The notes under the pieces were generated by a model, which saw only the letters and a list, made by a program, of their open reading frames with translations, ran no database searches and was not told where the DNA came from. From the UHGV virus genome UHGV-0317772: 39,687 nt of DNA. The stretch is one strand, 5' to 3'. How positions within the stretch are numbered: position 1 is the stretch's first letter; each line of letters begins with the position of its first letter. The translations under genes and the position numbers were made by a program. This document shows, in pieces, positions 5,154 to 37,529 of the stretch. This stretch comes from a virus.

Positions 5154-5157
5154 AAAT

Positions 5158-5342: not shown

Positions 5343-5416
5343 GTACCCTTAGCTCAGTTGGTCAGAGCAGACGGCTCATAACCGTCCGGTCGTAGGTTCG
5401 AGTCCTACAGGGTACA
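5343..5416 (+). tRNA. tRNA-Met (anticodon CAT; elongator type, possibly tRNA-Ile2 if lysidinylated)
   Basis: Hand-folded cloverleaf. Acceptor GTACCCT/AGGGTAC, D-arm GCTC-AGTTGGTCA-GAGC, anticodon stem GACGG/CCGTC with loop CTCATAA, variable loop CGGTC, T-arm GTAGG-TTCGAGT-CCTAC. No CCA is encoded. Confidence 0.85.
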
Positions 5417-5492
5417 TTAACGTAGCCATTTGAATCGTTCTGTGTTAGAATTTTTTTGAAGAGTATTATACAAGCTAAAGCTTTTCTTCATT

Positions 5493-5516
5493 GCCACTCA
5501 AATGAGTGGCTTTTTT
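5493..5516 (+). terminator. Rho-independent terminator
   Basis: GCCACTC-aaat-GAGTGGC followed by TTTTTT. Confidence 0.6.
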
Positions 5517-5927
5517 ATGTATCCTTTTATGGATTAATGAAAGGATGTTTCACATAGTTATACTTCTGTATATTTGAAAAGTTTTACTTTGATTTTTAAA
5601 TAGAAAGACATTTGGGTTAAATTGTGAGATAATAATAAAGAAGAGTTTAAAGCGCACCCCAAACCACTTCCCCATAAGTGTGTTACGCTTTAAACTCTTT
5701 TATATTTGAAGCCATTAAAAAGCATACCATATTTTTGAAAAAAAGTGAGAAAAAAGGCTTACAATTGGAGTGGTAGTTAATTAGTGACTTATTTTTGATT
5801 TTATAGCACTGATACTATAAAATATAGATATCATCATATTACACAATCTTAATACTAACTTAAAAAATATCTCCTTTCACAAGTATGGTGATAAAATTCG
5901 TTCCGGGCTACCTTTTTAGGTAGCCTA

Positions 5928-6018
5928 CTTTAATCTTTATACCTTTCTGGATCAACGAAAGTATACTTTATATAGTCATAACGCCGATGATCGCTACGTG
6001 CGTCCGGCACGTCAGTCA
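5928..6018. repeat. Direct repeat copy 1 (76 bp perfect core 5943-6018 plus about 15 bp imperfect extension)
   Basis: Identical to 9422-9497, with a sharp boundary at 6018. On the minus strand it encodes the last 29 codons of the gene at 9409-9714. Confidence 0.8.
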
Positions 6019-6092
6019 TGAATCGGCTACACTAGACTAGACAGAAAAAATAAGGTGTGTAGAATAATAAAAAACACACTGGAGGATTTTTC

Positions 6093-6383
6093 ATGTCAAG
6101 ACGTCAACGAAGAACCTATTCAAAAGAATTCAAACAACAAATCGTCGATCTCTATCTCGCTGGTAAGCCTCGCGCAGAAATTATTCGAGAGTATGAGCTT
6201 ACGCCTTCTTCTTTCGATAAATGGATGAAGCAAGCACAATCAACGGGCTCATTCAAAGAAAGAGACAACTTAACACCAGAACAAGCAGAATTGATCGCAC
6301 TAAGAAAGAAAAATAAGCAACTCGAAATGGAGAATGATATTTTAAAGCAAGCGGCGCTGATATTCGGACGAAAAGACAAGTAA
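6093..6383 (+). CDS. IS3-family transposase OrfA (HTH with leucine zipper)
   Basis: 96 aa with a C-terminal heptad (LIALRKKNKQLEMENDILKQ). The slippery heptamer T_TTA_AAG at 6341-6347 lies near the 3' end. Confidence 0.75.
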   Translation: MSRRQRRTYSKEFKQQIVDLYLAGKPRAEIIREYELTPSSFDKWMKQAQSTGSFKERDNLTPEQAELIALRKKNKQLEMENDILKQAALIFGRKDK

Positions 6384-6418
6384 TTGATGCCAACAAGCAT
6401 AAATATTCCATATCAGCG

Positions 6419-7255
6419 ATGTGCAAAATTCTAAATATTTCTCGTCAAACCTACTATTATCAAGCGAAACCGATCGAAAATGAGTCCGACTTAGAAGAGA
6501 TCGTTCAGGAAGAGTTTATTCGAAACCGAAAGGCTTACGGTACCCGAAAATTGAAGAAGTGTTTAGCAAAGCGTGGGCTTCAACTCAGTCGGCGCCGAAT
6601 CGGTCGAATCATGAAACGCCGCGGATTGACATCTACCTATACGATCGCTCATTTTAAAGGGCAACGAACAGCTTGTAATGAAGCGAAAACAGCGAATGTA
6701 TTAGATCGGACCTTTACACAAGAACAGCCATTGGAAGCCATCGTTACGGATCTTACTTATGTTCGCGTGGGGAAAAAGTGGCATTATATCTGCTTAATAC
6801 TTGATTTGTTTAATCGAGAAATTATTGGTTATTCCTGTGGTGAGAAGAAAGATGCCTCATTGGTAAAAGAAGCCTTTGGACGGATACCGTATTCTTTAAC
6901 AGACGTCAAGCTTTTTCATACAGACCGGGGAAAGGAATTTGATAACCAAACCATTCATGAGATTCTGAATGGTTTTGGAATTACTCGTTCATTGAGTAGG
7001 AAGGGTTGTCCGTATGATAATGCCGTTGTGGAATCAACCTATAAATCTGTCAAAGTAGAATTCGTGCATCAATACCAATTTGAGACACTGGCACAGCTAC
7101 GTCTAGAATTGTTTGATTATGTGCATTGGTGGAACTATCTACGCTTACATGGCACGTTGGCGTATGAAACACCGATCCAAATTCGACAACAGAGATTGGC
7201 GAAGCGAATCCTTGATAATGAGCGCGGATCTGATACCTCTGGAGAGGCAGCGTAA
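6419..7255 (+). CDS. IS3-family transposase OrfB (DDE integrase core), expressed as OrfAB by -1 frameshift
   Basis: DDE/rve-type core (HTDRGKEF, YDNAVVES). The -1 frame is open from the slippery site at 6347 through 6419 with no stop. Confidence 0.75.
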   Translation: MCKILNISRQTYYYQAKPIENESDLEEIVQEEFIRNRKAYGTRKLKKCLAKRGLQLSRRRIGRIMKRRGLTSTYTIAHFKGQRTACNEAKTANVLDRTFTQEQPLEAIVTDLTYVRVGKKWHYICLILDLFNREIIGYSCGEKKDASLVKEAFGRIPYSLTDVKLFHTDRGKEFDNQTIHEILNGFGITRSLSRKGCPYDNAVVESTYKSVKVEFVHQYQFETLAQLRLELFDYVHWWNYLRLHGTLAYETPIQIRQQRLAKRILDNERGSDTSGEAA

Positions 7256-7339
7256 TTGAATGATTGTGCTTCTGCCGGAGAAAATCAGATCCGAGGATGC
7301 TCATTGTCAAGGGCAATCGTAGCCATAACACCGCAGCAT

Positions 7340-7843
7340 TCACAACACCTTATAATTTTTGTCAAAAAAAGTGTTGCCATTCCACTTTTTTAAATATGCG
7401 TTCTCTGCTCTTAAACGAATAACTTCTTCTTCAAGAGACTCATCTTTAAGTTTTTTAGGAATGTTTAGCTTGGAATTCATACTAATTTTTCTGCCCCTTT
7501 TTTGGCTCTCAAGTGAAGAAGCACCGCCTTCTTCATATTGCTCTATCCATTTACTTAGAGTTCTATTTGAACCGATATTAAATTTTTTAGCAGTTTCTTG
7601 GATAGAAAGACCATTTGTTTCCATATATTCTATAACATCAAGTTTAAATTTTGTAGTGTAGCTTTTGCCACCTCCAACCAAGCCTTCCCAACCATGATAG
7701 TTATAAATCCTTACCCAATGTCTAACCAGTGTACGATTTATTTGATATTTATGTGCAAGATATTTGTAGCCGCCTTCGTTATTTAAATAGTCTGAAACTA
7801 CTTTTTTCTTAAAAACAAATGTATATTTCCGCAAAAAAAGCAC
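7340..7843 (-). CDS. IS3-family OrfA (HTH transposase N-terminal protein) of the truncated IS
   Basis: 167 aa with HTH motifs and a C-terminal zipper (EEEVIRLRAENAYLKK). Confidence 0.65.
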   Translation of the reverse strand: MLFLRKYTFVFKKKVVSDYLNNEGGYKYLAHKYQINRTLVRHWVRIYNYHGWEGLVGGGKSYTTKFKLDVIEYMETNGLSIQETAKKFNIGSNRTLSKWIEQYEEGGASSLESQKRGRKISMNSKLNIPKKLKDESLEEEVIRLRAENAYLKKWNGNTFFDKNYKVL

Positions 7844-7895
7844 CCCTTTTAATTAGATTTCTAGTCTAACTTTTGGGGTGCACATCATTTTTGAG
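7352..7895 (-). mobile_element. Truncated IS3-family (IS150-group-like) element: left end and OrfA only
   Basis: Read on the minus strand, the left-end IR TGATGTGCACCCCAAAAG at about 7876-7893 resembles the IS150 IRL. OrfB and the right end are missing, and the complete IS3 element abuts its OrfA stop. Confidence 0.55.
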
Positions 7896-7904
7896 GGGAA
7901 GTAC

Positions 7905-7956
7905 ATATAGTTGTTGATATAGTTGCTAATATTGTTAGCTAATTTGTTAGTAAAAC
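7905..7956 (+). promoter_or_regulatory. Array of four imperfect 12-13 bp direct repeats (ATAGTTGNTAAT-like)
   Basis: The repeats are atagttgttgat, atagttgctaat, attgttagctaat and ttgttagtaaaac in tandem. A second pair, ATATGCTTACAAA, lies at 8032 and 8056. Confidence 0.4.
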
Positions 7957-8085
7957 TGTATACGAATTTAGATAGTAAAAAAACAGTTTGTTCCTTATAT
8001 AGAGGCACTTTTACTACTGATTAAATGTCAGATATGCTTACAAATATACTTATAAATATGCTTACAAAATTAGCTAATATTTCCG

Positions 8086-8115
8086 TTGACAAAGCTTTGT
8101 TACTATTGTTAAACT
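8086..8115 (+). promoter_or_regulatory. Putative sigma-A promoter for the cargo operon
   Basis: TTGACA (8086-8091), an 18 bp spacer, then extended -10 TGtTAAACT. Confidence 0.4.
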
Positions 8116-8177
8116 AAATTGACTAGCAAAAGTGAAACATAAATTTATTAAATAAATGTAAAAATTAGGAGAAATCA

Positions 8178-8585
8178 ATGTCTTATAGAGTACAATTAAT
8201 AATTTCAGAAGATGTAGAAAGTCAGCAATTTGGCACTAATGTTATTAATAAAGTAATTAATCCAGCTCTTTCTATTAATGCGCCTTTAATTCCTACTGCT
8301 TTATCATTTTCTGTAACAGCTGTGGTGTCTGAGATAGAGGATACAGAAAAGATAAAAATAGTAGAAATTGAAGTTTTAAACAAGAATGAAAAACAAATTT
8401 TTTCTACGGGTGAAGTATCGGTAAGCTTGCCTCCTCAAGTTAACGATATAAACTTTAATATAAACGCCAGAAATGTCTTGGTTGAAGAAGCAGGAGAGCA
8501 TTATGCTGTTGTTAAATTTAATGGAACTGAGATTGGAAGGCAAATCTTTGATATCAAGGTCAACAAACCAGTGGAAAAAAATTAA
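8178..8585 (+). CDS. Hypothetical protein (cargo gene A, 135 aa, beta-rich)
   Basis: Strong RBS AGGAGAAATCAATG. It is the first gene of a three-gene operon and I recognise no family. Confidence 0.55.
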   Translation: MSYRVQLIISEDVESQQFGTNVINKVINPALSINAPLIPTALSFSVTAVVSEIEDTEKIKIVEIEVLNKNEKQIFSTGEVSVSLPPQVNDINFNINARNVLVEEAGEHYAVVKFNGTEIGRQIFDIKVNKPVEKN

Positions 8586-8598
8586 GGAGACGATACGG

Positions 8599-9000
8599 AT
8601 GCTTGATATAGTACCATCAAATACACATCGGAGTGGTAGCTTAATAAATTTTGCTGCGATTTTTGCTTGCGCATCGGTAATTCTAGCATCTCCAGTTGTT
8701 GTGGATGCAAGTTCTACTCCGAAAACTAAAAATGATAATCAACTTGTAATTACTACAAAAAATGAGATTAACACAATTTCAAGTAATGATGGCAAAATTT
8801 TTGATGTGATAAATACGGTTTTAAAAAGAAAAGCTGAAATCAATATAAAATATGATGAAGATTTAAACTTGTATTTCTTTGTTATCAAAACAACATCTGA
8901 ATTGTTTTCCTCAGATTACGATGTTTTGGATACTCTCGATAATGTATTATCTGACTATAAATATATGGGGAAATCTGTAGTAGCAACTTTGGGGGAATAA
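8599..9000 (+). CDS. Hypothetical secreted/membrane-anchored protein (cargo gene B, 133 aa)
   Basis: RBS AAGGAGACGATACGGATG. The N-terminal hydrophobic segment SLINFAAIFACASVILASPVVVDA is signal-peptide-like. The start is chosen inside the longer listed ORF. Confidence 0.5.
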   Translation: MLDIVPSNTHRSGSLINFAAIFACASVILASPVVVDASSTPKTKNDNQLVITTKNEINTISSNDGKIFDVINTVLKRKAEINIKYDEDLNLYFFVIKTTSELFSSDYDVLDTLDNVLSDYKYMGKSVVATLGE

Positions 9001-9001
9001 A

Positions 9002-9373
9002 ATGTTTGACTTTAATGAATATTTATCTATTTCCAAACAAATTGAATCAGATGATAAATATAATTCTAAAGAATCTTATAGAAGAACTGCTGTTTCAAGA
9101 GCATACTACAGTGCTTTTAAAAAATCTGATGAGTATTTGAAAGAAAATTATGATATTATTTATAATGGAAGTAGCGGAAAAGGAAGCCACCAAACCGTTT
9201 GGAATTTGTTTTCAACAGTTAAGGAATTGAATACCTTAGGAATACATAATAGTGGGTATAGAATGTTAGAGAAAAGAAAATGTGCTGACTATATTCCTAA
9301 TGAAACCATTACGAAAACAGATATGGCGCTGATGAATCGAGAAGCAGAAAAAATAATAAACAAACTCACCTAA
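9002..9373 (+). CDS. Hypothetical protein (cargo gene C, 123 aa), weakly HEPN-like
   Basis: Translationally coupled, with TAAAATG overlapping the gene B stop. The motifs SRAYYSAF and RMLEKRKCADY are reminiscent of HEPN helices, but the canonical Rx4-6H motif is not clear. Confidence 0.5.
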   Translation: MFDFNEYLSISKQIESDDKYNSKESYRRTAVSRAYYSAFKKSDEYLKENYDIIYNGSSGKGSHQTVWNLFSTVKELNTLGIHNSGYRMLEKRKCADYIPNETITKTDMALMNREAEKIINKLT

Positions 9374-9406
9374 TGAATTTCAAGCGAGTTTGTTTGTTAT
9401 TTTTTT

Positions 9407-9497
9407 ATTTAATCTTTGTATCTTTCTGGATCAACGAAAGTATACTTTATATAGTCATAACGCCGATGATCGCTACGTGCGTCCGGCACGTCAGTCA
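9407..9497. repeat. Direct repeat copy 2
   Basis: 76/76 identity with 5943-6018, plus an imperfect upstream extension. Confidence 0.8.
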
Positions 9498-10239: not shown

Positions 10240-11388
10240 TCAAAGGCTATTTAGTTTATCAATTACTTGTTGTTTGGCTCTTTTTGTTACATGGTTATAA
10301 ATAGACAGAGTTGTGTTTGCATCAGAATGCCCTACACGCTCCATAATGGCTTTAAGAGGTACGCCTAATTCAGATAATAGTGAAACGTGGCTATGTCTGA
10401 ATATATGTGAGGATAGACTTTTTTCTAATTCCAACTCTTCCTCTACTTTATGGAGTATAGCGTTAAATGAGTGCAGCGCAAGCGGAGTGCCACTTGTAGA
10501 TATAAATATATATTGATCGGGATCTGTGGGTCTACCTGCAAGAATATTGTCAGCTATCACACTTTCAATCAATTCTTTTGCACGATTGGGTAATTGCACT
10601 TCACGTTGCGAATAAGTATTTTTTGGAGTTGTTTTTATAGCATTATCCATTTTCACAGATGTGTAATCTAAGGTCCCATTAATGGAAATTTTCCCATCCT
10701 CATAGTCCTTCATTTGCAAAGCTAGCAATTCCCCATATCTCAAACCAGTTAAATATAGAAACTCAGCTATTATGCCGTGTAGTTTTCTGCGAGGATTGGA
10801 GTATAGCTGTTTCAGTATTTGATCAATTTCTTCTTTCTCCAGATATTTTTTATTCATAGAAAGCCTTCTTTTTTCTTCTTCCACTTTTTTAGGATGGATT
10901 TTAACTGCTAGCGCAGGGTTTCTTTGAATGTATTTTCTATCGATTGCATAGTTTAGCATAACAGATAGAGTTGTTTTTGTTTGTTTTGTGTAGTTCAGTG
11001 AGAGGTCACCAAACGTATACATATCTTCAATTATCTTATTAATGAGTGTCTCATCAATGTTTCTAACGATCGTATCATCGCTTATGTGCTTAGAAACATG
11101 TTTCATCATCATTGGAACCTTCAAATAGCTAGTACGTTTAACATGCTGCTTATAATATTCATACCATTCTTTATACAGCTCACCAAAAGTGATATCTGAT
11201 TTATTGTAATCTTCGAGTGCTTCTTTAATTTTTTTATCTAGAATTTTCTGAGCTTTTTTCCACGCTTGTGGTGAATTACTTGTAAGTGTTGTAGATTTTT
11301 TCCGTGTTTTTTCTGTATAAGGATCTACATATCTTTCAATAAACTTGAATTGGCCATCTTTGGTTTGTTCAACCCACACTTTTAACAT
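10240..11388 (-). CDS. int: Tyrosine recombinase / phage integrase
   Basis: 382 aa. The C-terminal catalytic signature is HIFRHSHVSLL...VGHSDANTTLSIYNHV (R..HxxR..Y), with an N-terminal SAM-like domain. Confidence 0.9.
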   Translation of the reverse strand: MLKVWVEQTKDGQFKFIERYVDPYTEKTRKKSTTLTSNSPQAWKKAQKILDKKIKEALEDYNKSDITFGELYKEWYEYYKQHVKRTSYLKVPMMMKHVSKHISDDTIVRNIDETLINKIIEDMYTFGDLSLNYTKQTKTTLSVMLNYAIDRKYIQRNPALAVKIHPKKVEEEKRRLSMNKKYLEKEEIDQILKQLYSNPRRKLHGIIAEFLYLTGLRYGELLALQMKDYEDGKISINGTLDYTSVKMDNAIKTTPKNTYSQREVQLPNRAKELIESVIADNILAGRPTDPDQYIFISTSGTPLALHSFNAILHKVEEELELEKSLSSHIFRHSHVSLLSELGVPLKAIMERVGHSDANTTLSIYNHVTKRAKQQVIDKLNSL

Positions 11389-11489: not shown

Positions 11490-12074
11490 TTATACAGTTG
11501 CTTTAAAAATAGCTGCTTTTTCAAATGATACTAAAGGAGAGAAGTGGATTTCTATTTCTCCCTTTTGGTTTAACGTGAAATGAGCAGTTACATCCATTTG
11601 TTTTCCTGGAGCAACAGATCCCATTGTATTTTCGTTGGCATATGTCTCTGATTTTTTGTCATCTGGTCCATATACTTCCACATCTGTACCTACAGGGATA
11701 TCTGAATCGCCATCATTTTTTACGGTATAAGTAATTTTTACTACTTGTGCAGGTTGGTTTTCTTCAAATTGATTTCTTTCATCAGTTAGTTCTACACTAT
11801 TTAGTGTATATTCAGCATCACCAACTTTTACAGTGTCACCAATCTTATAGAAGGTATCGCTTTTTTCTTCTTTAGAAGATGAAGCAGAGGTTGAAGATTT
11901 AGTTACTTTTTCGCCACCATTATCACTTGCTTTATTACTATCTGATCCACCATTTAAAGCAGAACCAATAATTATAATTAAAATTACTGCTAATACCCAA
12001 AACCATACTTTTTTGTAAAAAGGTTTACTAACTTTATACATTTTTCCGTCTTGACCCATAACTTTTTTTGCCAT
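11490..12074 (-). CDS. Membrane-anchored DUF4352-like protein (lysogeny-module accessory, possible superinfection exclusion)
   Basis: N-terminal transmembrane segment WFWVLAVILIIIIGSAL, a Ser/Thr-rich linker and a beta-rich C-terminal domain. It sits between int and the repressor pair. Confidence 0.5.
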   Translation of the reverse strand: MAKKVMGQDGKMYKVSKPFYKKVWFWVLAVILIIIIGSALNGGSDSNKASDNGGEKVTKSSTSASSSKEEKSDTFYKIGDTVKVGDAEYTLNSVELTDERNQFEENQPAQVVKITYTVKNDGDSDIPVGTDVEVYGPDDKKSETYANENTMGSVAPGKQMDVTAHFTLNQKGEIEIHFSPLVSFEKAAIFKATV

Positions 12075-25591: not shown

Positions 25592-25906
25592 ATGTTTAAA
25601 AACGAATTGTCTCAAAATCGCTACAGAGAAAAATTACGCCGCTCTTTAATAAGCCAATTGGAAAGTCAGAAAACAAATATTGAGCCATTCTTAGATAATG
25701 TTGATCGTTATATCAGTTTATGGGAAACGGCGATATCACTGGAAGAAGATATATCCGAGAACGGCATTAGACTGGAGAATGGTAAAAAGAATGAATCAGT
25801 AGCGTTGCTTGTTTCTGTCAACAAACAAATGGGATTGATGTTGGATAAACTTGCCATTACTCCTGAATTGGTAGGTGAAGCAAATGAATCAATTCCTGAG
25901 TTATAA
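25592..25906 (+). CDS. terS: Terminase small subunit (P27 family-like)
   Basis: 104 aa with RBS GAAAGGAGGGCTAAAATG. It is directly upstream of and overlapping terL, and the size and position are typical for cos phages that encode an HNH. Confidence 0.6.
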   Translation: MFKNELSQNRYREKLRRSLISQLESQKTNIEPFLDNVDRYISLWETAISLEEDISENGIRLENGKKNESVALLVSVNKQMGLMLDKLAITPELVGEANESIPEL

Positions 25907-27578
25907 GCATATTGAAAATTGGTTCAAAGCTATAGAAGAAGGCACTATCAAGGTATGCAAAGAGCAATTATTGCTAAAAAATTATCTAGAAGAAAGAGTC
26001 TTTACTAGAGAAGATATTTACTTCGATAAGCAGATGGTAGAGGATTCAATCAATATACCAGCACAATACTTTCCATTCGAATTAATTCCGTGGGAAAAAT
26101 TTCTACAATGTTTTATTTATGGTGTTCGATGGAAAAAAGATAAAACACTAGTGTTCAATAGATATCTTTCATTAATGGGACGTGGTAATGGTAAAACTGG
26201 TTTTGCTTCTTGGAACAACTTCTTTCTACTAACCGCTAAACACGGTATTAAAAATTATGATATTGATATCTATGCCAATAATGAAAGCCAAGCAAAGACT
26301 AGTTTTGATGATGTATTTAAAGTAATTAAAGATCATCCTGATTTAGATAAAAAAGTATTTAAAGCTACGAAGGAAGTTATTCAAAATATCGCTACAAACA
26401 GCAAACTTCGTTATAACACGGCAAATGCTAGAACAAAAGATGGGAAGCGACCAGGTGCAAACCGCTTTGATGAAATTCACGAAAATGAAGATTATTCAAT
26501 GATAAATGTGGCTACTTCTGGTGGTGGTAAAATTCGAGATTATAGAGAATTTTATGATACAACTAATGGTCATGTTCGTGGTGGTCCGCTTGATGACATT
26601 ATAGAAGAATCAAAAATGATTCTTTCTGGAGAACTTGGAATTGACAAGGATGGAGCAGAATTTTCTAGTTTGTTTCCATTTATTTGTCGCTTGGATAACG
26701 ATAATGAAGTTGATGATCCCGACATGTGGGAAAAAGCTTGTCCAACTATTAATTACAATGCAGATTTAAAACGGAAAATGTTTCAAGAATACTCTCAAAT
26801 GCAACGTAATGCTGGTTTAAGACTTACGTTCATGACCAAACGAATGAACAGACCTATGGAAGATACACGATTTGCTGTTGCTTCATATGATGATGTTCTG
26901 CATACGAAAGAAAAAGAATTTCCTGAAAAAATGGATGAAGTGATAGGAACAGTCGATTTTGCTGATAGACGAGATTTTGCCAGCGTTGGGTTGCTAGGAA
27001 AATACGATAAAGATGTTTATTTTACACAACATACTTTTATCCACGAATCAGCCCTTCGATTACAAAACATCAAACGAGAGGTTATAGATATTTCTATAGA
27101 TCAAGGAAAATCACAGATCGTTCATGGAAAAAATATAGAAGCTGATTATATTGTAGGTTGGTTTCTTGAAATGAGTAATAAATATTATATTAAAAAAATC
27201 GCTATGGATATGTACCGTGCAAAAATATTGAAGCCCGCTTTAGAAGAAGCAGGTTTTACTGTGGAAATTGTTCGAAGCGGATCTGTTACACATGGTATGT
27301 TAAAAGATCTGGTTGATGACCTTTTTATTAATCAACGTTTATTTTTTGGTGACGATGCGATTATGCGTTGGTATTGCATGAATGTATATGAAGAGCATAT
27401 TTCTAATGGAAATATACGCTATGAAAAAATAGAACCTGAAACTAGAAAAACGGATGGCTTTTTTTCATTCCTTCATGGTTTGAATTTTTTAGATGATATT
27501 TATGATTCTGCTCCTGTAACAGTCACAAATAGCTCAGTAGAAAATACAGGAACTGGATTTACTCCTCTAGTATTCTAA
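25875..27578 (+). CDS. terL: Terminase large subunit
   Basis: 567 aa with Walker A-like GRGNGKTG, an ATPase N-terminal domain and a nuclease C-terminal domain. Confidence 0.85.
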   Translation: MKQMNQFLSYKHIENWFKAIEEGTIKVCKEQLLLKNYLEERVFTREDIYFDKQMVEDSINIPAQYFPFELIPWEKFLQCFIYGVRWKKDKTLVFNRYLSLMGRGNGKTGFASWNNFFLLTAKHGIKNYDIDIYANNESQAKTSFDDVFKVIKDHPDLDKKVFKATKEVIQNIATNSKLRYNTANARTKDGKRPGANRFDEIHENEDYSMINVATSGGGKIRDYREFYDTTNGHVRGGPLDDIIEESKMILSGELGIDKDGAEFSSLFPFICRLDNDNEVDDPDMWEKACPTINYNADLKRKMFQEYSQMQRNAGLRLTFMTKRMNRPMEDTRFAVASYDDVLHTKEKEFPEKMDEVIGTVDFADRRDFASVGLLGKYDKDVYFTQHTFIHESALRLQNIKREVIDISIDQGKSQIVHGKNIEADYIVGWFLEMSNKYYIKKIAMDMYRAKILKPALEEAGFTVEIVRSGSVTHGMLKDLVDDLFINQRLFFGDDAIMRWYCMNVYEEHISNGNIRYEKIEPETRKTDGFFSFLHGLNFLDDIYDSAPVTVTNSSVENTGTGFTPLVF

Positions 27579-27597
27579 CTTGAAAGGAGGTGAGAAA

Positions 27598-28776
27598 GTG
27601 GGGATTTTTCAAAAGGCGGTAGGATACTTCACAAAAAAAGCAACGGTTCCTTTAGAAGAATACTTTTGTAAATTGCAAGTTGATTTTGTGTATCGAAAAT
27701 TTGCGATTGAAACTTGTATTGATTTGATTGCAAATGCGATGAGTAAAGCGGAATTCAAGTCATATGAAGATGGAAAAAATAAAAAGAATGATCTTTACTA
27801 TAGGCTGAATGTAGCTCCTAATAAGAAAAATAATGCAACAGAATTTAGAAAAAAACTGATCAGGAGATTAATATTCTACAATGAAGTATTGATCGTTTCT
27901 CCGTCTAATAATTCTAGCGAAATATTTATTGCGGATAGTTGGGATGTCACAGAATATGCATTGAAAGATGATGTGTTTTCTCAAGTGCAAATTAACAACA
28001 TAGTCCTTGATAGAGAATTTCTAGAAAGTGATGTTATCTATATAAAATACGCAGATCAACAAATTAGGCAACTAGTCGATGCGTATTATCAAGCGTATGG
28101 GAAACTCATTTCTAGTGCCATGAATGTTTACAAGCGCTCTAACGCTCGTAGATACGTACTGAAAGGGAATTTATTCCGACCGCAAGACAATACAACACAA
28201 GATCAAATCAATAAAATGATGACATCACAATTTAAGGCTTTTATGGAAGCTGATAATGCAGGTGCGGTATTTCAATTACAAAATGAGTACACATTAGAAG
28301 ATTTCAGCGGAAACTTCCAAAGCAATTCAAGAGATATAAAAAACTTAATAGACGACATCTTTGAGATGACAGCAGCAGCGTTTCACGTTCCGAAAAACCT
28401 ACTAAAGGGAGACATGAGTGGGTTATCGGATCAAGTGGACGCTTTTTTAATGTTCGAAATCATACCGATTGCTGAACTTATTCAGGATGCGTTTAACGCT
28501 AGTCTCTATGAAGTAGAAGAATACTTGTCAGGGAATTTTGTACGTGTGGATACAACTATGATCAAGATTACTAGCTTCAAAGATTTGGTTGACGCTATTG
28601 ATGTAGGCATTAGAAATGGAGTATTTACAATCAACGAAGGAAGAGAACGCGTTGGAAATGATCGCTCTGATAAGGCGATGGCAGATGAAATATTTATAAC
28701 TAAAAACAATCAACAAGTATCGAAAGGAGGTGAGGCGAATGACGACAATGAAAACATTTCTAGCAGTAAAGAATGA
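27598..28776 (+). CDS. Portal protein (HK97-family-like)
   Basis: GTG start after GAAAGGAGGTGAGAAA. About 392 aa, located after terL. Confidence 0.7.
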   Translation: MGIFQKAVGYFTKKATVPLEEYFCKLQVDFVYRKFAIETCIDLIANAMSKAEFKSYEDGKNKKNDLYYRLNVAPNKKNNATEFRKKLIRRLIFYNEVLIVSPSNNSSEIFIADSWDVTEYALKDDVFSQVQINNIVLDREFLESDVIYIKYADQQIRQLVDAYYQAYGKLISSAMNVYKRSNARRYVLKGNLFRPQDNTTQDQINKMMTSQFKAFMEADNAGAVFQLQNEYTLEDFSGNFQSNSRDIKNLIDDIFEMTAAAFHVPKNLLKGDMSGLSDQVDAFLMFEIIPIAELIQDAFNASLYEVEEYLSGNFVRVDTTMIKITSFKDLVDAIDVGIRNGVFTINEGRERVGNDRSDKAMADEIFITKNNQQVSKGGEANDDNENISSSKE

Positions 28777-29425
28777 AGGCGCAGTACCGCAAATTTTTAT
28801 TCAGGGATTTATTGGTTCTAGTTGGTTCTTTGAAGGGAATACTGACAAGGGAATCAAAAATATTTTGGATAGTCTAGGTGATCAAGAAGAAATTGAAGTA
28901 GTAATTAATTCAAACGGTGGAGACGTATTTCAAGGGATTGCTATTGGGAACTTACTTAAGTCAAATAAAGCAAAAGTTAACGTTGTGATTAACGGCTTAG
29001 CCGCTAGTGCTGCTTCAATTATCGCAATGGCTGGCGATACTATAAAAATCTACAACAATGCACAATTGATGATTCACCGCGCTTCCACATACGGAGAAGG
29101 AAATGTCGATGACTTCCGTACGATTGCTGACCAACTGGAATCAATTGATAAATCGGTAAAGGCTTCATATAAAACACGATTCAATGGCACAGATGAAGCA
29201 TTGCAAGAACTTCTTGAAAAAGAATCGTTTATGGATGCAGAAACAGCTTTGAGTTATGGATTGGTCGATGAAATTATCGATGCAGAAAATAGCTCAGGTA
29301 CTGAAGCTAAAAAAGAACAAAGCGTTGAAGAAATTTTGAATGACGTTAAAGAAAAAAGAGCAGAAAAAATTGCTGCATTTACAGCAGCATTAAATAAAAC
29401 ATTTGGACAAGGAGATGTAAAATAA
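28739..29425 (+). CDS. Prohead protease, ClpP-like (S14)
   Basis: GGDVFQG...LAASAASIIAMAGD...MIHRAS supplies a Ser/His catalytic pair in ClpP-like context. The start ATG follows AAAGGAGGTGAG. Confidence 0.75.
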   Translation: MTTMKTFLAVKNEGAVPQIFIQGFIGSSWFFEGNTDKGIKNILDSLGDQEEIEVVINSNGGDVFQGIAIGNLLKSNKAKVNVVINGLAASAASIIAMAGDTIKIYNNAQLMIHRASTYGEGNVDDFRTIADQLESIDKSVKASYKTRFNGTDEALQELLEKESFMDAETALSYGLVDEIIDAENSSGTEAKKEQSVEEILNDVKEKRAEKIAAFTAALNKTFGQGDVK

Positions 29426-30585
29426 TGACAGTTAAAAATTTAAAAGGTGTAACAGCTGCAAGCGACCAATTGATGAAAGCTTTTAAAGATGGTAACGAAG
29501 AATCTTTTAGCGCAGCTATGGTAAGCTTATCTAAGGAAATTCAGGATAAAATTTTAGAAGAAGCAACAGCAAAAAATCAAGATCAATTAGTATTAATGAA
29601 CCGTGGTCAGCGTGTATTAACTACACAAGAAACAAAATTCTATAACGAAGTAGTGAAAAACGAAGGTTTTGCAGGGGTCGAAGAATTAGTGCCAGCTACT
29701 GTATTTGAACGTGTATTTGAAGATTTAGAACAATCTCATCCACTATTGCAAAAAATTACTTTTGTTAACACAACTGGTGTAACAGAATGGATTGTGTCAC
29801 GTGGAGTCAATCCAGCATGGTGGGGTAAACTTTGCGAAGCTGTTAAAAAAGTTTTAGATAATGGCTTTGATGTAATTAACATGAAGCAGTTCAAGCTATC
29901 AGGTTATATTCCTGTATGTAAGGCAATGCTTGATTTAGGTCCAGTATGGTTAGATCGTTATGTCCGTACTGTTTTAGTAGAATCATTGAGAATTGCATTA
30001 GAACAAGCAATTGTTGATGGTACTGGTAAAGATATGCCAGTCGGAATGATGCGTGACATGAGCAAACAAACTAGCGGAGAATATGCTGCAAAAGAAGCAG
30101 AACCTATTACAGCTTTAGATGCTGTAACTATGGGCGGTTTGATGGCGCGACTATCAAAATTCAATATCGAAGGTGTGAATGATCCGATTTATCGTAATGT
30201 GAATCCTTCTGATGTGGTCCTAATTGTGAATCCAACTGATTACTGGTCTAAAGTATTCCCAGCTAAGACTGTACTAACTGCTAATGGAGAATACGTACAA
30301 GTATTGCCAGTACCAGTTTCAGATTTGCAGTCAACGGCTGTGCCAGAAGGAAAAGCAGTTATTGGGGTAGCCTCAGATTACTTCATGGGTGTAGGATCTA
30401 CACTAAAAATTGAAGCTTCAGATGAATACCATTTTGTTGAAGACGAACGCATTTATCTAGCTAAACAATATGCAAACGGTCAACCTAAACGTAACGATAG
30501 TTTCATTGTATTAGATATTAGCGCTTTGGGAACTACTACTACAACTACAAAACCAACAACCACAACAACTACAACACAAGCGTAG
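29425..30585 (+). CDS. Major capsid protein (HK97-fold) with C-terminal Thr-rich tail
   Basis: 386 aa, after the protease. It ends ...LGTTTTTTKPTTTTTTTQA. Confidence 0.75.
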   Translation: MTVKNLKGVTAASDQLMKAFKDGNEESFSAAMVSLSKEIQDKILEEATAKNQDQLVLMNRGQRVLTTQETKFYNEVVKNEGFAGVEELVPATVFERVFEDLEQSHPLLQKITFVNTTGVTEWIVSRGVNPAWWGKLCEAVKKVLDNGFDVINMKQFKLSGYIPVCKAMLDLGPVWLDRYVRTVLVESLRIALEQAIVDGTGKDMPVGMMRDMSKQTSGEYAAKEAEPITALDAVTMGGLMARLSKFNIEGVNDPIYRNVNPSDVVLIVNPTDYWSKVFPAKTVLTANGEYVQVLPVPVSDLQSTAVPEGKAVIGVASDYFMGVGSTLKIEASDEYHFVEDERIYLAKQYANGQPKRNDSFIVLDISALGTTTTTTKPTTTTTTTQA

Positions 30586-30594
30586 GTGATCAGA

Positions 30595-31470
30595 ATGAAG
30601 TATATTCTTTGTCAGCCGGCAATCAATCGGTTTAAATGGGAGCTTGAAGTTTGTTTAACTAATCTGAAGAAACTAGGAATCAAAGATATCGTATTGCTTT
30701 TCAGCAGACACGATGATCAGATTCCTATTTTTTTTGAGAAGGAATATGGTGTTGAAGTTCATGTGTACGATGATCTGCGGGACGACAAAGAGTATATTCC
30801 TTCGATTAAACCATATTTATGGTGGAAATATTTAGAAGAAGATCATTCGCGTGAGGACGACCGATATTTCTATATCGATTCGGATGTCATTTTCAATAAA
30901 AGAATTAATTTGCGCAAATTGCCTTCTAAAGATGATGTTTGGTATTGTAGCGACTGCTGTAGTTATCTAAGTCTTGATTATATTAGAAGCTGTGAAAACG
31001 GAGAAAATATTCTAAAAGATATGGCAAACATTGTAAATGTTACAGTAGAATCTTTGGAAACTATAAACACTAATTCAGGAGGCGCACAGTGGGTTATTAA
31101 CCGTCCTAAAGCGAATTATTGGAAAAAGGTTTATCTGGATTCTAATCGGCTATATCGCTACCTTAGAGGGCAAAAAACAAATATACAAATCTGGACAGCC
31201 AAGATGTGGGCACAGCTTTGGAACATGATGTATTTCAATATTGGTCCTAAAGTTCACGAGGAATTAGACTTTTGTTTTGCTACTGATCCAATAGAAAAAG
31301 TTAAAGAAGTAAAAATCTTACACAATGCTGGAGTAACAACAAACGATGAAGATTTATTTTTCAAAGGGAGATACGTGACTTCTACGCCTTTTGATGAAGA
31401 TTTATCATTTGTAAACAAGAAAAAATGCTCTTACGCATATGTTAAAGCAATTAAGGCGGTGGTTAGATGA
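30595..31470 (+). CDS. Putative GT-A-type glycosyltransferase-like protein (moron between capsid and connector genes)
   Basis: 291 aa with RBS GGTGA. It has an N-terminal alternating beta/alpha pattern and an acidic DxD-like motif (YFYIDSDVIF) about 100 residues in. No transmembrane segment. Confidence 0.35.
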   Translation: MKYILCQPAINRFKWELEVCLTNLKKLGIKDIVLLFSRHDDQIPIFFEKEYGVEVHVYDDLRDDKEYIPSIKPYLWWKYLEEDHSREDDRYFYIDSDVIFNKRINLRKLPSKDDVWYCSDCCSYLSLDYIRSCENGENILKDMANIVNVTVESLETINTNSGGAQWVINRPKANYWKKVYLDSNRLYRYLRGQKTNIQIWTAKMWAQLWNMMYFNIGPKVHEELDFCFATDPIEKVKEVKILHNAGVTTNDEDLFFKGRYVTSTPFDEDLSFVNKKKCSYAYVKAIKAVVR

Positions 31471-31778
31471 CGCCTGAACAAGTGACTGAAGAATTGCTAA
31501 TAGCTGTGAAGGATAATATTTACGTTACCTGGAACGAAGAAGATGAGTCAATTAAAAAGATGATAGCTAAAAATGCTGTTTATCTTCAAAGTAAAGTGAG
31601 TACAACACTTTCTTTTTCTCCTGAAAGCTTAGAATACGGATTGCTAATCGAAAGATGTAGATACGACTGGAATCGTGCTTTAGATGAGTTTGAACAAAAT
31701 TTCGCTAGTGAGTTATTAGGTTTCATTCAACATTATGCGCTACAAGAATATATTGCAGGTGATGTGAATGGCGAATAA
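31467..31778 (+). CDS. Head-tail connector / DNA-packaging protein (gp6-like)
   Basis: 103 aa, placed after the capsid module. Confidence 0.5.
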   Translation: MTPEQVTEELLIAVKDNIYVTWNEEDESIKKMIAKNAVYLQSKVSTTLSFSPESLEYGLLIERCRYDWNRALDEFEQNFASELLGFIQHYALQEYIAGDVNGE

Positions 31779-32920: not shown

Positions 32921-33526
32921 ATGGCTAAAACAACAACAGTAACAACTTTTGACAATATAAGTATTAAAAGAATTTCTTTTAATTTTAAGAATGCAACAAA
33001 TGCAATTTCAACTGATTGTAATGGACAATTAGATGGCGAAACAGAAATGCAGAGAATTGTAAAAAAATGCGGTTCAACAGAAGTAAAATCGAAATCTAAA
33101 CCAATCAATATGACGGTAACAATTACTGCACATGTACCGATGGAAGTTTATCGACGCTTCAATGGGTTGAAACAAGATGAACGTATTAAATCGGGAATTT
33201 ACTCTTATGGTCCTGATTCCGTAGGGGAAGATTTCTCTCTTGCTGCAGAGATCGTGGATGATTTCGAAGAAAAAAATAAGCTGATTGGTATGTTAGCATG
33301 CACTTCGAATACAGGATTAACATTCTCTATTGAAAATGGTGCGGATGAAGTAGCTGCGTTAGAACTAGAAACAAAAGTTATGCAAGATGAATTTGGTAAA
33401 TTTTATCATGAAGCAATTGTTGCAGAACTTGAAGAAGACTTAACAGATCAATGGATGACGAATCTATCTGCTGATGTGATTAAAAAAACTTCAGTTGTGA
33501 CAACTACGGCCACTCAATCACAGTAA
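32921..33526 (+). CDS. Major tail protein
   Basis: 201 aa with strong RBS AGGAGGAACAACAATG. It is upstream of the chaperone and tape-measure pair. Confidence 0.6.
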   Translation: MAKTTTVTTFDNISIKRISFNFKNATNAISTDCNGQLDGETEMQRIVKKCGSTEVKSKSKPINMTVTITAHVPMEVYRRFNGLKQDERIKSGIYSYGPDSVGEDFSLAAEIVDDFEEKNKLIGMLACTSNTGLTFSIENGADEVAALELETKVMQDEFGKFYHEAIVAELEEDLTDQWMTNLSADVIKKTSVVTTTATQSQ

Positions 33527-34109: not shown

Positions 34110-37100
34110 ATGGCTAAAAAGAGAACAGAAGCAGAAGTAACTTTCATAGCTAACGATGACGGATTGAAATCTACGTTAAAAGAAATCAGTGCTGAATTAA
34201 CTAAAAATAGAGCAGAATTAAAACTAGAACAAGCTCAATTACAACAGACTGGTTCTGAATCAGACAAGTTAGGAAGTAAATTATCTTCTTTAGAAAAGCA
34301 GTATGAATTACAAAGCCAAAAAGTTGAAGTAACTAGCCAACGTTTAGCCAATGCCAAAAAATATTATGGAGAAAATTCCACCGAAGTTCAGAAACTTGAG
34401 AGAGAACTGATTAACCAACAAACAGCGCAACAACGTTTGTCAAACGAAATTGATAAAACGAGTAATACACTAGCTCAAGCAAAAGGCGAAATACAGACGT
34501 ACGAGTCTACAATGCAACAGTTGGATAGTGAACAAAAAAATGTTCAAGCTAGTGCTTCTCTGATTGAATCCGAATACAAAAAATGGCAAGTAACTGCTGG
34601 TCAATCAGCTTCTGAATCCGAGAAATTAGCGAAAGCCCAAGAATATGTTTCTCAACAATCTGAAAATGCAGAGAAAACGATAGATATCCTGAGACGACAG
34701 TTAGAAGCTACACAGTCTGAGTTTGGCGCTACATCCACAGAAGCAATGCAGATGGAGGCGAAGCTTAATGATGCTGAACGTGAATTTGAAGAGTTAGGAC
34801 AAGCTGCTAAAAATGTAGATACAACTAACTTGGACGATATCGGAAGCAAAATAGATATGAATAATTTAATGGAAGCTTCTGACGTTTTAAGCGACATTGG
34901 CGATAAGCTTACAGAATTAGGGAAACAAGCAGTGGACTCTGCTAACAGTGTAGGTAGTTCCCAGAGTAAAATACAAGCTAATTTTGGTTTGACTAAACAA
35001 GAGGCTGAAGAATTAACGAATGTAGCCAGAGACATTTATTATAAAGGTTTTGGAGAATCGTTAGATCAGTCCACAGATGCATTGATTTTGGTAAAGCGTA
35101 ATTTAGGCGATTTAAATAATCAAGATTTACAAAATATTACGGAACAAGCTATGGTCCTAGAAAACACCATGGGCGCTGATATGGATGAAACGTTACGTGG
35201 TGTAAATGGCTTAATGGTCAACTTCGGATTGAGCGCTCAAGATGCAATGGATTTAATGGTTTCGGGTACTCAAAACGGTTTAGATAAAACGCACGAATTA
35301 GGCGACAATATGGCAGAATATAGCCAATTATGGAGTCAAATGGGATATTCAGCTGATGAAACGTTCGGAATGCTTCAAAATGGTTTAGATGCGGGTGCTT
35401 ATAACCTTGATAAAGTCAATGACTTAGTTAAGGAAATGGGAATATCGTTAACAGATGGTCGATTTGAGCAAAACATGGATATGTTTAGTGAAAGTACTAG
35501 AAAAGCTTTTGAAGAGTGGAAAAATGGTGGAGGAACACAAAAAGACGTTATTAATTCCATGATTCAAGATTTTAGCAATATGGATGGTCAATACGACCAA
35601 TTAAATAAAGCTTCTACAATTTGGTCTGCACTTGGCGAAGATAACGCGATGAAAGTTGTCCAATCTTTGACTGATGTTAACCATACATTTGATGATGTTA
35701 GTGGATCTGCACAAAAAATGAATGAAGATTCTACTACTCCGTTACAAGAATTAAACGGAAAAATAGCTGAATTAAAGGATTCATTAGCTCCTATAGGCAA
35801 CACAATCATAGATGCACTCGAACCAGTAATTGATTTTCTAGGAAAGATGGCTGATGCGTTTAATAATCTTCCACAACCAGTACAGGATTATGCCGTAGCG
35901 ATTGGCGGATTGACTGCTGCATTTACTTTATTAATGCCAATAATAGTTGGCTTCATGGCTCTAGGTGGTCCTACTACATTAATAATAGGAGCAGTTATTA
36001 CTGCTATTGCTGGAGTTATAGCAATTATAAAAAACTGGGGCGCAATTACTGACTGGTTTAAGGGAATATGGAGTAAATTCACTGATTGGTTGGGTGGTAC
36101 TTGGGAAAGCATAAAAGAAGGTGCCTCATCAGTTTGGGATGGAGTCAAAGAAACCTGGTCTGGATTTGTAGATTGGGTTCAAGAAATTTGGCAAGGAGTT
36201 TCTGATTGGTTTGGAGAGTTATGGAGCGGATTAGTTGAAGGAGCTTCCAACATCTGGCAAGGAGTCCAAGAGACTTGGCAAGCATTCGTTGATTGGGTTT
36301 CAAATATTTGGAACGGAGTCAAAGAAGTATGGTCGATTATTTGGGCAGACATTGTAGGAATTGTTCAAATACCATGGACATTAATAACGTCATTGATTCA
36401 AGCTGGTATTAATATTATCGTGGGTATCTTTGATGTAGCTGGACAGTTATTAGGCGCAGCTTGGCAAGCTGTTTGGACACCTATTTCTGATTTCCTTAAA
36501 AATACTTGGGATACTATGACACAATGGATAAGCATCGCTTGGAATGGAATTGTAACTACATTCCATACTATATTTGATCCAGTAGTGGCATGGTGGAATG
36601 GTATATGGACATCTATTAGTACTACGGCTTCAAATATTTGGAACTCAATTAGTGCAACAGCTTCTAGTATTTGGAATAGTATCAAGAATACAATCACTAG
36701 CTTGGTACAAGCAGCTGCTACAGTAATTCAAAATATTTGGTCAACTGTATCTAGTTGGTTAGGTGGAATTTGGAATTCAATCAGCTCTACAGCATCAAAT
36801 ATCTGGAGTAGCGTGACTAGTAGTATAAGCAATGCTATAAACGCAGCTAAAAGTGCCATTCAAAGTGTTTGGAATAGTATATCTTCGTGGATCAGCGGAA
36901 TTTGGAACGGTATCAAAAACACTGCTTTGAATCTTTGGAATGGAATTACAAGCACTATTAGCTCTAAAGTAAACGATGGAAAAAATGCAATTTCAAGCGG
37001 TTGGTCCAATCTAACAGGTATTGTTTCCGACATATTCAATAATGTTAAAAGCACGATAGCTAATATATGGGAAGGTATCAAAAAGACTGTTAGCGCTCCG

Positions 37101-37529
37101 ATTGATTGGATTAGAGATAAAATCAGTAGTGTCTTTGATAATTTGAATATTTCTATACCACATATTCCGTTACCACATTTTAAATTGAGCGGAGAATTCA
37201 ATCCATTGAAGGGGAAAATCCCAACATTGGGTGTTGATTGGTATGCGAAAGGTAGTGTGTTTAATTCTCCAAATATTATCGGTGTAGGTGAATCAGGACC
37301 TGAAGCAGTTTTACCTTTGAAAAGATCTGTGCTGCAAGAAATTGGTGATCGTATCTTGAGTAGCACCTCAGTTTCATCTAGGACACAAGCGGTTCAACCT
37401 GTGAACAATTACGAATTCAATTTCACAATTGATGGTAACGCAGATGAAGTCACTATGAAGCAAACAACTCAACAAATCATTGATAGCATTACAAAAGTTC
37501 AAAATGATAATGCTTCGGCATGGCGTTAA
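34110..37529 (+). CDS. Tail tape measure protein
   Basis: 1139 aa with an N-terminal coiled coil, a transmembrane/Gly-rich core and a C-terminal array of about 11-residue W/I-periodic repeats. Confidence 0.85.
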   Translation: MAKKRTEAEVTFIANDDGLKSTLKEISAELTKNRAELKLEQAQLQQTGSESDKLGSKLSSLEKQYELQSQKVEVTSQRLANAKKYYGENSTEVQKLERELINQQTAQQRLSNEIDKTSNTLAQAKGEIQTYESTMQQLDSEQKNVQASASLIESEYKKWQVTAGQSASESEKLAKAQEYVSQQSENAEKTIDILRRQLEATQSEFGATSTEAMQMEAKLNDAEREFEELGQAAKNVDTTNLDDIGSKIDMNNLMEASDVLSDIGDKLTELGKQAVDSANSVGSSQSKIQANFGLTKQEAEELTNVARDIYYKGFGESLDQSTDALILVKRNLGDLNNQDLQNITEQAMVLENTMGADMDETLRGVNGLMVNFGLSAQDAMDLMVSGTQNGLDKTHELGDNMAEYSQLWSQMGYSADETFGMLQNGLDAGAYNLDKVNDLVKEMGISLTDGRFEQNMDMFSESTRKAFEEWKNGGGTQKDVINSMIQDFSNMDGQYDQLNKASTIWSALGEDNAMKVVQSLTDVNHTFDDVSGSAQKMNEDSTTPLQELNGKIAELKDSLAPIGNTIIDALEPVIDFLGKMADAFNNLPQPVQDYAVAIGGLTAAFTLLMPIIVGFMALGGPTTLIIGAVITAIAGVIAIIKNWGAITDWFKGIWSKFTDWLGGTWESIKEGASSVWDGVKETWSGFVDWVQEIWQGVSDWFGELWSGLVEGASNIWQGVQETWQAFVDWVSNIWNGVKEVWSIIWADIVGIVQIPWTLITSLIQAGINIIVGIFDVAGQLLGAAWQAVWTPISDFLKNTWDTMTQWISIAWNGIVTTFHTIFDPVVAWWNGIWTSISTTASNIWNSISATASSIWNSIKNTITSLVQAAATVIQNIWSTVSSWLGGIWNSISSTASNIWSSVTSSISNAINAAKSAIQSVWNSISSWISGIWNGIKNTALNLWNGITSTISSKVNDGKNAISSGWSNLTGIVSDIFNNVKSTIANIWEGIKKTVSAPIDWIRDKISSVFDNLNISIPHIPLPHFKLSGEFNPLKGKIPTLGVDWYAKGSVFNSPNIIGVGESGPEAVLPLKRSVLQEIGDRILSSTSVSSRTQAVQPVNNYEFNFTIDGNADEVTMKQTTQQIIDSITKVQNDNASAWR

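Follow-up and report, generated by a model that had tools for sequence, protein, structure and literature searches.

A glycosyltransferase-fold enzyme encoded almost only alongside threonine-rich protein tails suggests that many phages of Gram-positive bacteria sugar-coat their particles

We have analysed a stretch of 39,687 nucleotides of the viral genome UHGV-0317772 (termed the window in the following), which includes late-operon genes from a prophage of Enterococcus faecium with 99.8% identity to Enterococcus phage 4995_1 (OP745419), and have focused on an open reading frame (ORF) encoding 291 amino acids that follows the gene of the major capsid protein, and on the threonine-rich tail of this capsid protein. 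The prophage character of the element is reflected in the presence of an integrase and a lysogeny module. As described in an initial annotation of the region, the 291-residue ORF is wedged between the capsid and connector genes of the head module; it is a genuine ORF, which is listed as hypothetical coding sequence in phage 4995_1. The gene resides on the same strand as its neighbours and starts with an ATG located five nucleotides past a TAGGTGA site, which combines the features of a Shine-Dalgarno sequence with the embedded stop codon of the capsid gene, whereas a GTG at position 30586 provides an alternative start. At its other end, it overlaps with the following gene by four nucleotides. 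The overlap of the capsid stop codon with the Shine-Dalgarno-like site suggests that the gene would be co-transcribed and translationally coupled with that of the capsid protein. Connector and neck genes occupy the region between the 291-residue ORF and the gene of the tail-tube protein.

The identity of the capsid protein is defined by its matches to the Pfam family Phage_capsid (PF05065, E 9e-17), to the major head proteins of phrog_10 (E 3e-64) and to TIGR01554. Its C-terminus reads ...ISALGTTTTTTKPTTTTTTTQA* and is organized as an ISALG segment followed by six threonines, a Lys-Pro pair, seven threonines and a terminal Gln-Ala. The threonines are encoded by a mixture of ACT, ACA and ACC codons at positions 30532-30549 and 30556-30576, with AAA CCA in between and CAA GCG TAG thereafter. 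In the 17-residue end ...GTTTTTTKPTTTTTTTQA of this tag peptide, which is also written TTTTTTKPTTTTTTTQA, 13 positions are occupied by Thr. The initial annotation had described a single tract of 13 threonines, and while their number and C-terminal location are correct, they are distributed over two runs. Because Thr accounts for only 5.7% of the remainder of the protein, the tail is not a chance feature (with a probability of about 3e-14).

Six phages, BMBtp13, PK5.2, AR1074-1, PSA, A40 and Spoks, share the module composed of terminase, portal, ClpP-type protease, capsid and connector genes, with capsid proteins that are 37-50% identical. In all six, a short ORF of 62-98 amino acids is found directly 3' of the capsid gene, which in several cases is recognizably of the same connector type as the gene at positions 31467-31778 of the window, the homologous ORFs having a common ...CRY..N....EF..NF motif. 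Neither a poly-Thr tail nor a homologue of the 291-residue ORF was found in any of the six. Since phages with a homologous module contain no gene at the equivalent position, the 291-residue ORF constitutes an insertion, in agreement with the earlier notion that no extra gene would normally be located there.

The predicted structure of the 291-residue protein displays the GT-A fold of glycosyltransferases (GT), with a single Rossmann-like α/β/α domain that would bind nucleotide-sugars. A layout of this kind, with a DxD-like YIDSDV motif near residue 100, had been recognized in the initial annotation, and the motif is located at residues 93-98 of the protein; a non-transferase fold was not observed. 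The closest similarity in three dimensions is to GT8 structures, including LgtC, glycogenin and GlyE, with UGGT of family GT24 and GT6 proteins as further fold neighbours. In an alignment of 39 sequences, which are between 51 and 79% identical to the query, the residues D95, D97, Q165, H243, G246 and K257 are invariant, as is G258 following the conserved lysine. The DxD motif succeeds strand E90-93 in the model and the C-terminal H243 is a predicted metal ligand. The consecutive arrangement of DxD, a Gln in a GGAQW motif, an HxxG motif (HNAG) and a Lys is as expected for GT8 elements. Their counterparts in human glycogenin-1, whose sequence was verified against the PDB, are FMDADT, GGDQG and VVHFLGRVKPW, and from this likeness we infer a residue-by-residue equivalence of the motifs. 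The highest hydropathy on the Kyte-Doolittle scale for a segment of 19 residues is 1.11, and the protein therefore contains no transmembrane segment, as had been presumed.

The profile search for GT2 or GT8 domains that had been envisaged in the initial annotation did not identify a matching sequence model. Neither the query nor any of the 39 aligned family members matches a Pfam entry, including PF01501, even at E ≤ 10, the 291-residue protein has no match in NCBIfam, and no match to PDB sequences was obtained by phmmer or by profile search. A comparison with glycogenin-1 in hhalign aligned 17 columns around the DxD motif and no other segment, at a probability of 0.4% that is not significant. 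In PHROGs, residues 1-289 of the 291 are assigned to phrog_4417 (E 2.5e-155), a family of "unknown function", and public records name it "hypothetical protein" or "prophage pi2 protein 34", with a single UniRef entry carrying the automated name "Glycosyl transferase family 8". In light of the absence of a sequence link to any glycosyltransferase family in CAZy or Pfam, the assignment relies on the predicted structure, according to which the protein is a GT8-type transferase by fold and no member of GT8 by sequence.

The link between the predicted transferase and poly-Thr tails extends far beyond the window. In each of the 80 loci containing the enzyme that were fetched from IMG/VR, at least one structural ORF ends in poly-Thr, with capsid and tail-tube proteins frequently both being tagged and the enzyme gene usually located immediately 3' of a tagged gene. 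After dereplication to 40 enzyme clusters, an adjacent ORF with a run of at least five threonines is found in 30, compared to 28 of the 660 other ORFs in the same loci. Every relative with the enzyme that we have examined among phages of Bacillota encodes structural proteins with a tag of this kind, and both components also occur together in phages phiFL1A, iLp84, bIL285, 1706, phiCTP1, PMBT8, Bacchae, SAC12B and LP65, whose capsid and tail proteins belong to unrelated families. The tagged proteins, which include capsids of the HK97-type and of other families, are mutually non-homologous. In phage 1706, a protease-capsid fusion and the tail-tube protein both end with T9-10-HHD, tail-tube proteins are tagged in phiFL1A and bIL285, small decoration-like or immunoglobulin (Ig)-like proteins in iLp84, Bacchae, SAC12B and LP65, and a protein at the position of the portal in phiCTP1. 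In environmental phages, Thr-rich proteins of 1,659-2,067 amino acids adjoin the enzyme. The tag diverges along with the enzyme, as illustrated by TTVKPTT repeats in SAC12B and a TTTETQTQ sequence in LP65, whose Thr-rich orf51 is annotated as structural protein found by two-dimensional gel electrophoresis and mass spectrometry. The orf14 of phage 1706, a homologue of the enzyme, is by contrast absent from the proteins annotated as structural in a neighbourhood where such proteins are annotated.

The converse relationship, whether a tag predicts the enzyme, is reflected in a scan of viral DNA in which 120 stretches were retrieved with eight consecutive ACN codons, (ACN)8, as sole criterion. The family was detected in seven of these stretches (E < 1e-49), and in all seven a Thr-rich ORF abuts the enzyme gene. 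Compared with pattern-based scans for the family, which gave on the order of 1,000 matches in 2.9 million contigs, this corresponds to an enrichment of about two orders of magnitude, a rough estimate in view of the unknown order in which the scan returns its matches. Most (ACN)8 matches are internal linkers in unrelated environmental contigs, many of them in loci without the enzyme, and they do not provide a background rate for C-terminal tails.

The co-occurrence of tail and ORF in relatives, on which the initial annotation had placed emphasis, is strongly positive and includes natural variants with gain or loss of both components, whereas a distribution in which the relatives carrying the ORF would all be devoid of the tail was not observed. 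Among relatives of the bIL285 tail-tube protein, all 13 with the enzyme and none of the 57 without it are tagged (Fisher p = 2e-14). For relatives of the iLp84 capsid, the tag is found in 31 of 31 cases with and in 2 of 27 cases without the enzyme (Fisher p = 2e-14), a relationship that upon dereplication is reduced to 16 tagged and no untagged proteins in presence and to no tagged and 12 untagged proteins in absence of the enzyme (Fisher p = 3e-8). A natural knock-out is provided by two Lactobacillus paracasei prophages with about 99% identical capsids, where three separate sites have changed together. In the prophage that lacks the enzyme (L454) the capsid ends with ...VLIPKP instead of the ...VLVPTTTTTTTSK found in its enzyme-carrying counterpart (L449), the tail tube with ...SSSGTGA instead of ...GETTTTTTTSK, and a short ORF takes the place of the cassette encoding a decoration protein and the enzyme.

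Several properties of the tag are those of a portable module. The residues past the last Thr run, such as QA, QG, SHA, HHD, SK or KKA, tend to agree within a genome, and the suffix is identical in 25 of 57 pairs of tags from the same genome vs 13.6% of pairs from different genomes. In two loci, L032 (positions 8806-8838 and 11750-11782) and L041, the capsid gene agrees with the tail-tube gene at each synonymous site over the last 33 nucleotides, with an Ala-to-Val variant contained in both genes of the latter, and 27 nucleotides are likewise common to both gene ends in iLp84 (L003). The shared nucleotides in these three cases indicate recent gene conversion between tag-coding ends. In other genomes, including the close relatives of the window, the wobble positions differ while the tag peptide is kept, which argues for selection on the peptide itself.

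The family of the transferase is large. A search with a hidden Markov model against 1.84 billion representative sequences identified 866 clusters at E ≤ 0.001 and 499 at E ≤ 1e-30. Homologues are contained in 77 deposited genomes of temperate and virulent siphoviruses and of Herelleviridae myoviruses, which infect Enterococcus, Lactobacillus and relatives, Lactococcus, Staphylococcus and Clostridium, the virulent carriers including phage 1706, Herelleviridae and Enterococcus phages of 86 kb. A divergent branch is found in large environmental phages of about 100-119 kb, and in E. faecium, prophages with the enzyme are located on 172 contigs. Longer members of 396-779 amino acids (P0159, P0176, P0171, P0163 and P0264) are fused to GT2, Glyco_transf_7C, methyltransferase, PqqD or radical-SAM/SPASM domains, an architecture that fits a putative role in the assembly of glycans on peptide substrates. 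The fusions to PqqD, a peptide-binding element, and to radical-SAM domains also resemble enzymes of peptide maturation, similar to those acting on ribosomally synthesized and post-translationally modified peptides. The protein cluster at 90% identity that contains the 291-residue enzyme also lists entries of 386 amino acids named "phage major capsid protein", which may have arisen from the clustering itself or from a gene called somewhere as fused or with read-through.

Other arrangements were observed around the enzyme in different phages. In environmental contigs of low GC content, the enzyme gene is located directly 3' of a giant ORF (L171 996-5975, L183 3114-8114 and L136 2390-8593, in coordinates of the minus strand) encoding a protein of 1,659-2,067 amino acids with internal poly-Thr linkers and a Cys-containing end (...CPTCP, ...CPACGNQP), and in L123 it is flanked on both sides by small Cys-rich ORFs ending in poly-Thr. 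These giant and Cys-rich Thr proteins may be fibre or adhesin substrates. In Staphylococcus phage PMBT8 (L213), the region 4123-8941 contains three ORFs of about 245-297 amino acids with similar C-terminal motifs (...IEIPYW..., ...YIEVPF...), which are located between the neck genes and a "major tail protein" fragment of 105 amino acids ending with T16-QSHIL. Its tail-tube gene may be split by introns bearing homing endonucleases.

The features of the window are summarized in Table 1.

Table 1. Features of the late operon in the window, with predicted functional sites of the transferase.
Feature	Position	Strand	Basis or remark
Terminase	25875-27578
Portal	27580-28776
ClpP-type protease	28730-29425
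Major capsid protein, HK97 type, 386 amino acids, predicted acceptor	29425-30585	+	PF05065, phrog_10, TIGR01554; annotated as major capsid protein in OP745419
Poly-Thr C-terminal tag T6-KP-T7, then Q-A-stop; predicted O-glycosylation sites	30532-30576	+	Direct sequence reading
TAGGTGA, Shine-Dalgarno-like, with embedded capsid stop codon	30583-30589	+	5 nucleotides upstream of transferase ATG
GT-A fold, GT8-like predicted protein O-glycosyltransferase, 291 amino acids, phrog_4417	30595-31470	+
D95-S-D97 codons, DxD motif, predicted binding of Mn2+ and nucleotide-sugar	30877-30885	+	Invariant in 39 family members; preceded directly by model strand E90-93
Q165 codon, invariant GGAQW motif	31087-31089	+	Likeness to GGDQG of glycogenin-1, by sequence alone
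H243 codon, invariant H-N-A-G motif, predicted third metal ligand	31321-31323	+	Invariant columns; likeness to GT8 H-x-x-G...K
Head-tail connector-type gene, phrog_749, marks insertion point	31467-31778	+	Directly 3' of capsid gene in relatives without enzyme
Major tail (tube) protein, phrog_117	32921-33526	+	Degenerate tag KKTSVVTTTATQSQ at 33488-33523
Tape measure	34110-37529

Outside of this region, ARAGORN identified a tRNA with a CAT anticodon (Met) at positions 5343-5416 of the window, and what is probably the same gene is labelled as tRNA-Ile in OP745419. The latter record, which is flagged UNVERIFIED_ORG, carries genes of IS3-type transposases between the integrase and the lysis genes (window 10240-11388; OP745419 12354-16572) and probably contains DNA that is not from the phage.

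We show here that a protein with predicted GT-A fold and conserved residues of catalytic type is encoded in a late operon in near-obligate pairing with Thr tails on virion proteins. The best reading of these features is that of a phage-encoded O-glycosylation system for virion proteins, to which we assign a probability of roughly 0.78. The transferase would be a soluble, cytoplasmic and metal-dependent GT-A enzyme of a previously unannotated GT8-like family, which would be expressed from the structural operon in the late phase of infection, along with the proteins of the virion. With a divalent metal ion and a UDP (uridine diphosphate)-sugar as predicted donor, it would O-glycosylate the Thr hydroxyls of the tag before or during assembly, where the fold similarity to retaining enzymes suggests an α linkage. 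No other glycosyltransferases are annotated in the phage record, and the glycan would thus probably consist of one sugar per Thr or of a short processive chain. The predicted acceptor in the window is the C-terminal tag of the capsid, as had been proposed initially, whereas in relatives the predicted substrates also include tail-tube and small Ig-like decoration proteins, which that proposal had not covered. If the tails project from the surface of capsid and tail, as assumed from capsids of the HK97 type, the assembled virion would be covered by O-linked sugars in a dense, mucin-like layer, which might confer stability or solubility, shield against proteases or antibodies, promote adhesion to mucus or polysaccharides or hide capsid and tail proteins from host sensors and defences. 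The enzyme itself is probably no component of the virion, in view of the annotation of orf14 in phage 1706 and of the parallel to phage Corndog described below. On a larger scale, we find it fairly probable that phrog_4417, with at least 866 clusters at 50% identity, is a large and so far unrecognized family of enzymes that O-glycosylate phage proteins. Each enzyme would have a poly-Thr glyco-tag as its partner, a portable element that was transferred onto capsid, tail-tube, decoration and giant fibre-like proteins without mutual homology and homogenized within genomes by gene conversion.

Several observations weigh against a glycosylation of virion proteins. The functional assignment is based on a predicted structure, with no tie to CAZy or Pfam glycosyltransferases at the level of sequence and an insignificant alignment to glycogenin. 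The tail-tube protein of the window carries a degenerate tag, in a region that in most near-identical prophages of E. faecium reads KKSSTTTTTTTQA and matches the tag of the capsid, so that the same combination of capsid and enzyme is associated with two allelic forms of the tail-tube end; in light of this degeneration, the capsid is the main predicted acceptor in the window. In bIL285, the enzyme gene follows an untagged capsid gene and the tag is found on the tail tube instead, and in the environmental subfamily, 6 of 22 clusters contain no run of five or more threonines nearby. Two L. paracasei-type loci (L493 and L496), which are the sole exceptions to the pairing of enzyme and tag in their set and which may be recent recombinants, do not contain the enzyme within 13 kb and still retain a tail tube ending with GETTTTTTTSK (ORF 8816-9415). 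Finally, a glycostain survey of ten unrelated phages, none of them known to carry the enzyme, was negative (PMC12894461), which shows that virion glycosylation is not general among phages.

In weighing alternatives, we have considered that the enzyme might instead modify a glycan of the host envelope, such as teichoic acid or the Epa polysaccharide, in the course of lysogenic conversion or superinfection exclusion, as is the case for prophage-encoded transferases of other bacteria, with the Thr tails being unrelated. Phage-encoded glycosyltransferases that alter the surface glycans of the host are well established, the element is a prophage with integrase and lysogeny module, and an acceptor is not identifiable from the fold alone. 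Such a role is nevertheless very unlikely for a protein without membrane segment whose gene is located outside the lysogeny module, among the late head genes and with its translation apparently coupled to that of the capsid, and whose family is also found in virulent phages; it would in addition leave unexplained why the enzyme and the poly-Thr tags are almost perfectly linked in their occurrence and loss. The tails could also be unmodified hydrophilic spacers or brushes, with the transferase acting on phage DNA, another protein or a small molecule and their link reflecting a shared history of the module. Linkers rich in Thr and Pro that are not glycosylated do exist, and the many internal poly-Thr linkers in enzyme-less loci of the (ACN)8 scan would be compatible with this view. 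A shared module history does not account for a linkage that recurs, in siphoviruses as well as in myoviruses, on capsid, tail-tube and decoration proteins without mutual homology, and the concerted change at three sites between L449 and L454, the co-divergence of tag and enzyme and the lack of annotated genes for hydroxymethyl-pyrimidines or other DNA hypermodification in the phage record make this explanation unlikely as well.

The protein might also have a glycosyltransferase fold without catalytic activity and serve as assembly chaperone or lectin-like binder of the Thr tails. The fusion of some relatives to PqqD-like peptide-binding domains and the similarity to a peptide-modification chaperone noted by the annotators of phage 9183 point in this direction, whereas the invariance of exactly those residues that are expected for GT-A catalysis and the binding of metal and nucleotide-sugar (DxD, H, Q and K) would be unusual for a pseudoenzyme, and in other relatives the fusion partner is a second glycosyltransferase or a methyltransferase. 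We thus regard this possibility as highly improbable. Roles in DNA modification, in surface conversion and as pseudoenzyme were rejected based on annotation, operon position, the co-loss of tags and the invariance of residues.

The proposed O-glycosylation of virion proteins has a precedent in actinobacteriophages. Work by Freeman and colleagues from 2023 (Cell Host Microbe 31:1216) on Che8, Corndog and Myrna reportedly described O-glycans on the C-termini of capsid and tail-tube subunits that are attached by phage-encoded transferases, and is said to have found little evidence for virion glycosylation outside of this group. As in these phages, the transferase described here is encoded by the phage and the C-termini of capsid and tail-tube proteins are the predicted acceptors. 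The parallel to Corndog extends to the location of the gene, as the glycosyltransferases of this phage are encoded in the virion structural operon, were detected in infected cells and are absent from virions (PMC4351075). Different from actinobacteriophages, the hosts are Bacillota, one small enzyme from a family without annotation takes the place of several annotated glycosyl- and methyltransferases, and a plain poly-Thr tag, which is portable and also carried by small decoration proteins, serves as predicted acceptor in a putative glycosylation system. While the principle would be the same, the enzyme family, the portable homopolymeric acceptor, the decoration-protein substrates and the host phylum are different. 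No mycobacteriophage proteins are found among the top 50 fold matches of the enzyme in BFVD, and no direct homology comparison with mycobacteriophage glycosyltransferases was made.

Towards the GT8-type retaining enzymes LgtC, glycogenin and GlyE and the neighbouring UGGT/GT24 and GT6 proteins, the phage family is distinguished by the absence of detectable sequence similarity, by residues inserted between its HxxG motif and conserved Lys and by its predicted acceptor, a homopolymeric Thr tail. In the glycosylation of serine-rich repeat protein (SRRP) adhesins of Gram-positive bacteria, the first sugar is added by a GT-B pair (GtfA/B) and followed by the action of GT8 enzymes such as GlyE, and the proteins are exported by the accessory Sec system. 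The phage system differs in its structural protein substrates and in its restriction to a single GT-A enzyme. The A64R protein of chlorovirus PBCV-1, with more distant structural similarity, is from a giant virus of eukaryotes with atypical N-linked glycans and without a poly-Thr tag. Listeria phage PSA contains a homologous head module (with 50% identity of the capsid) in which the same two C-termini are decorated. In this case, part of the subunits carry an additional translated peptide instead of a post-translational sugar, as the result of a programmed +1 frameshift (with ribosomal slippage annotated on cps and tsh), and PSA contains no transferase gene. Also in BMBtp13, PK5.2, PSA and Spoks (from the enzyme-less loci L205-L210), the ends of capsid and tail-tube proteins match within one phage (PTP/PTP, PTP/ATP, STTTA/GTTSA). 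Apparently, the same two C-termini are modified through recoding in one lineage and, as predicted, through sugars in another.

The initial annotation had regarded capsid glycosylation as essentially undescribed for temperate phages of low-GC Gram-positive bacteria. This fits our literature searches, although the system is not confined to temperate phages and is also found in virulent siphoviruses and myoviruses. Full-text searches did not uncover an account of this family of enzymes or of the poly-Thr tails of its phages, with only genome and virome papers retrieved under the names of the phages, an absence that is no proof of general absence. A natural glycosylation of phage particles is known to have been demonstrated for actinobacteriophages only, and papers up to mid-2026 cite solely Freeman et al., 2023, in this respect.

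If our interpretation is correct, virion glycosylation would be a frequent trait of phages that infect enterococci, lactobacilli, lactococci, staphylococci, clostridia and listeriae, as well as of large environmental phages, and would not be restricted to actinobacteriophages. It would provide a function for a widespread "hypothetical" phage family, with members in prophages of the hospital pathogen E. faecium and in economically important dairy phages. Since a coat of glycans can alter antibody recognition and clearance, the system would also be relevant for phage therapy, and the combination of a short poly-Thr tag with one small soluble enzyme would offer a two-part tool to display sugars on phages and other proteins.

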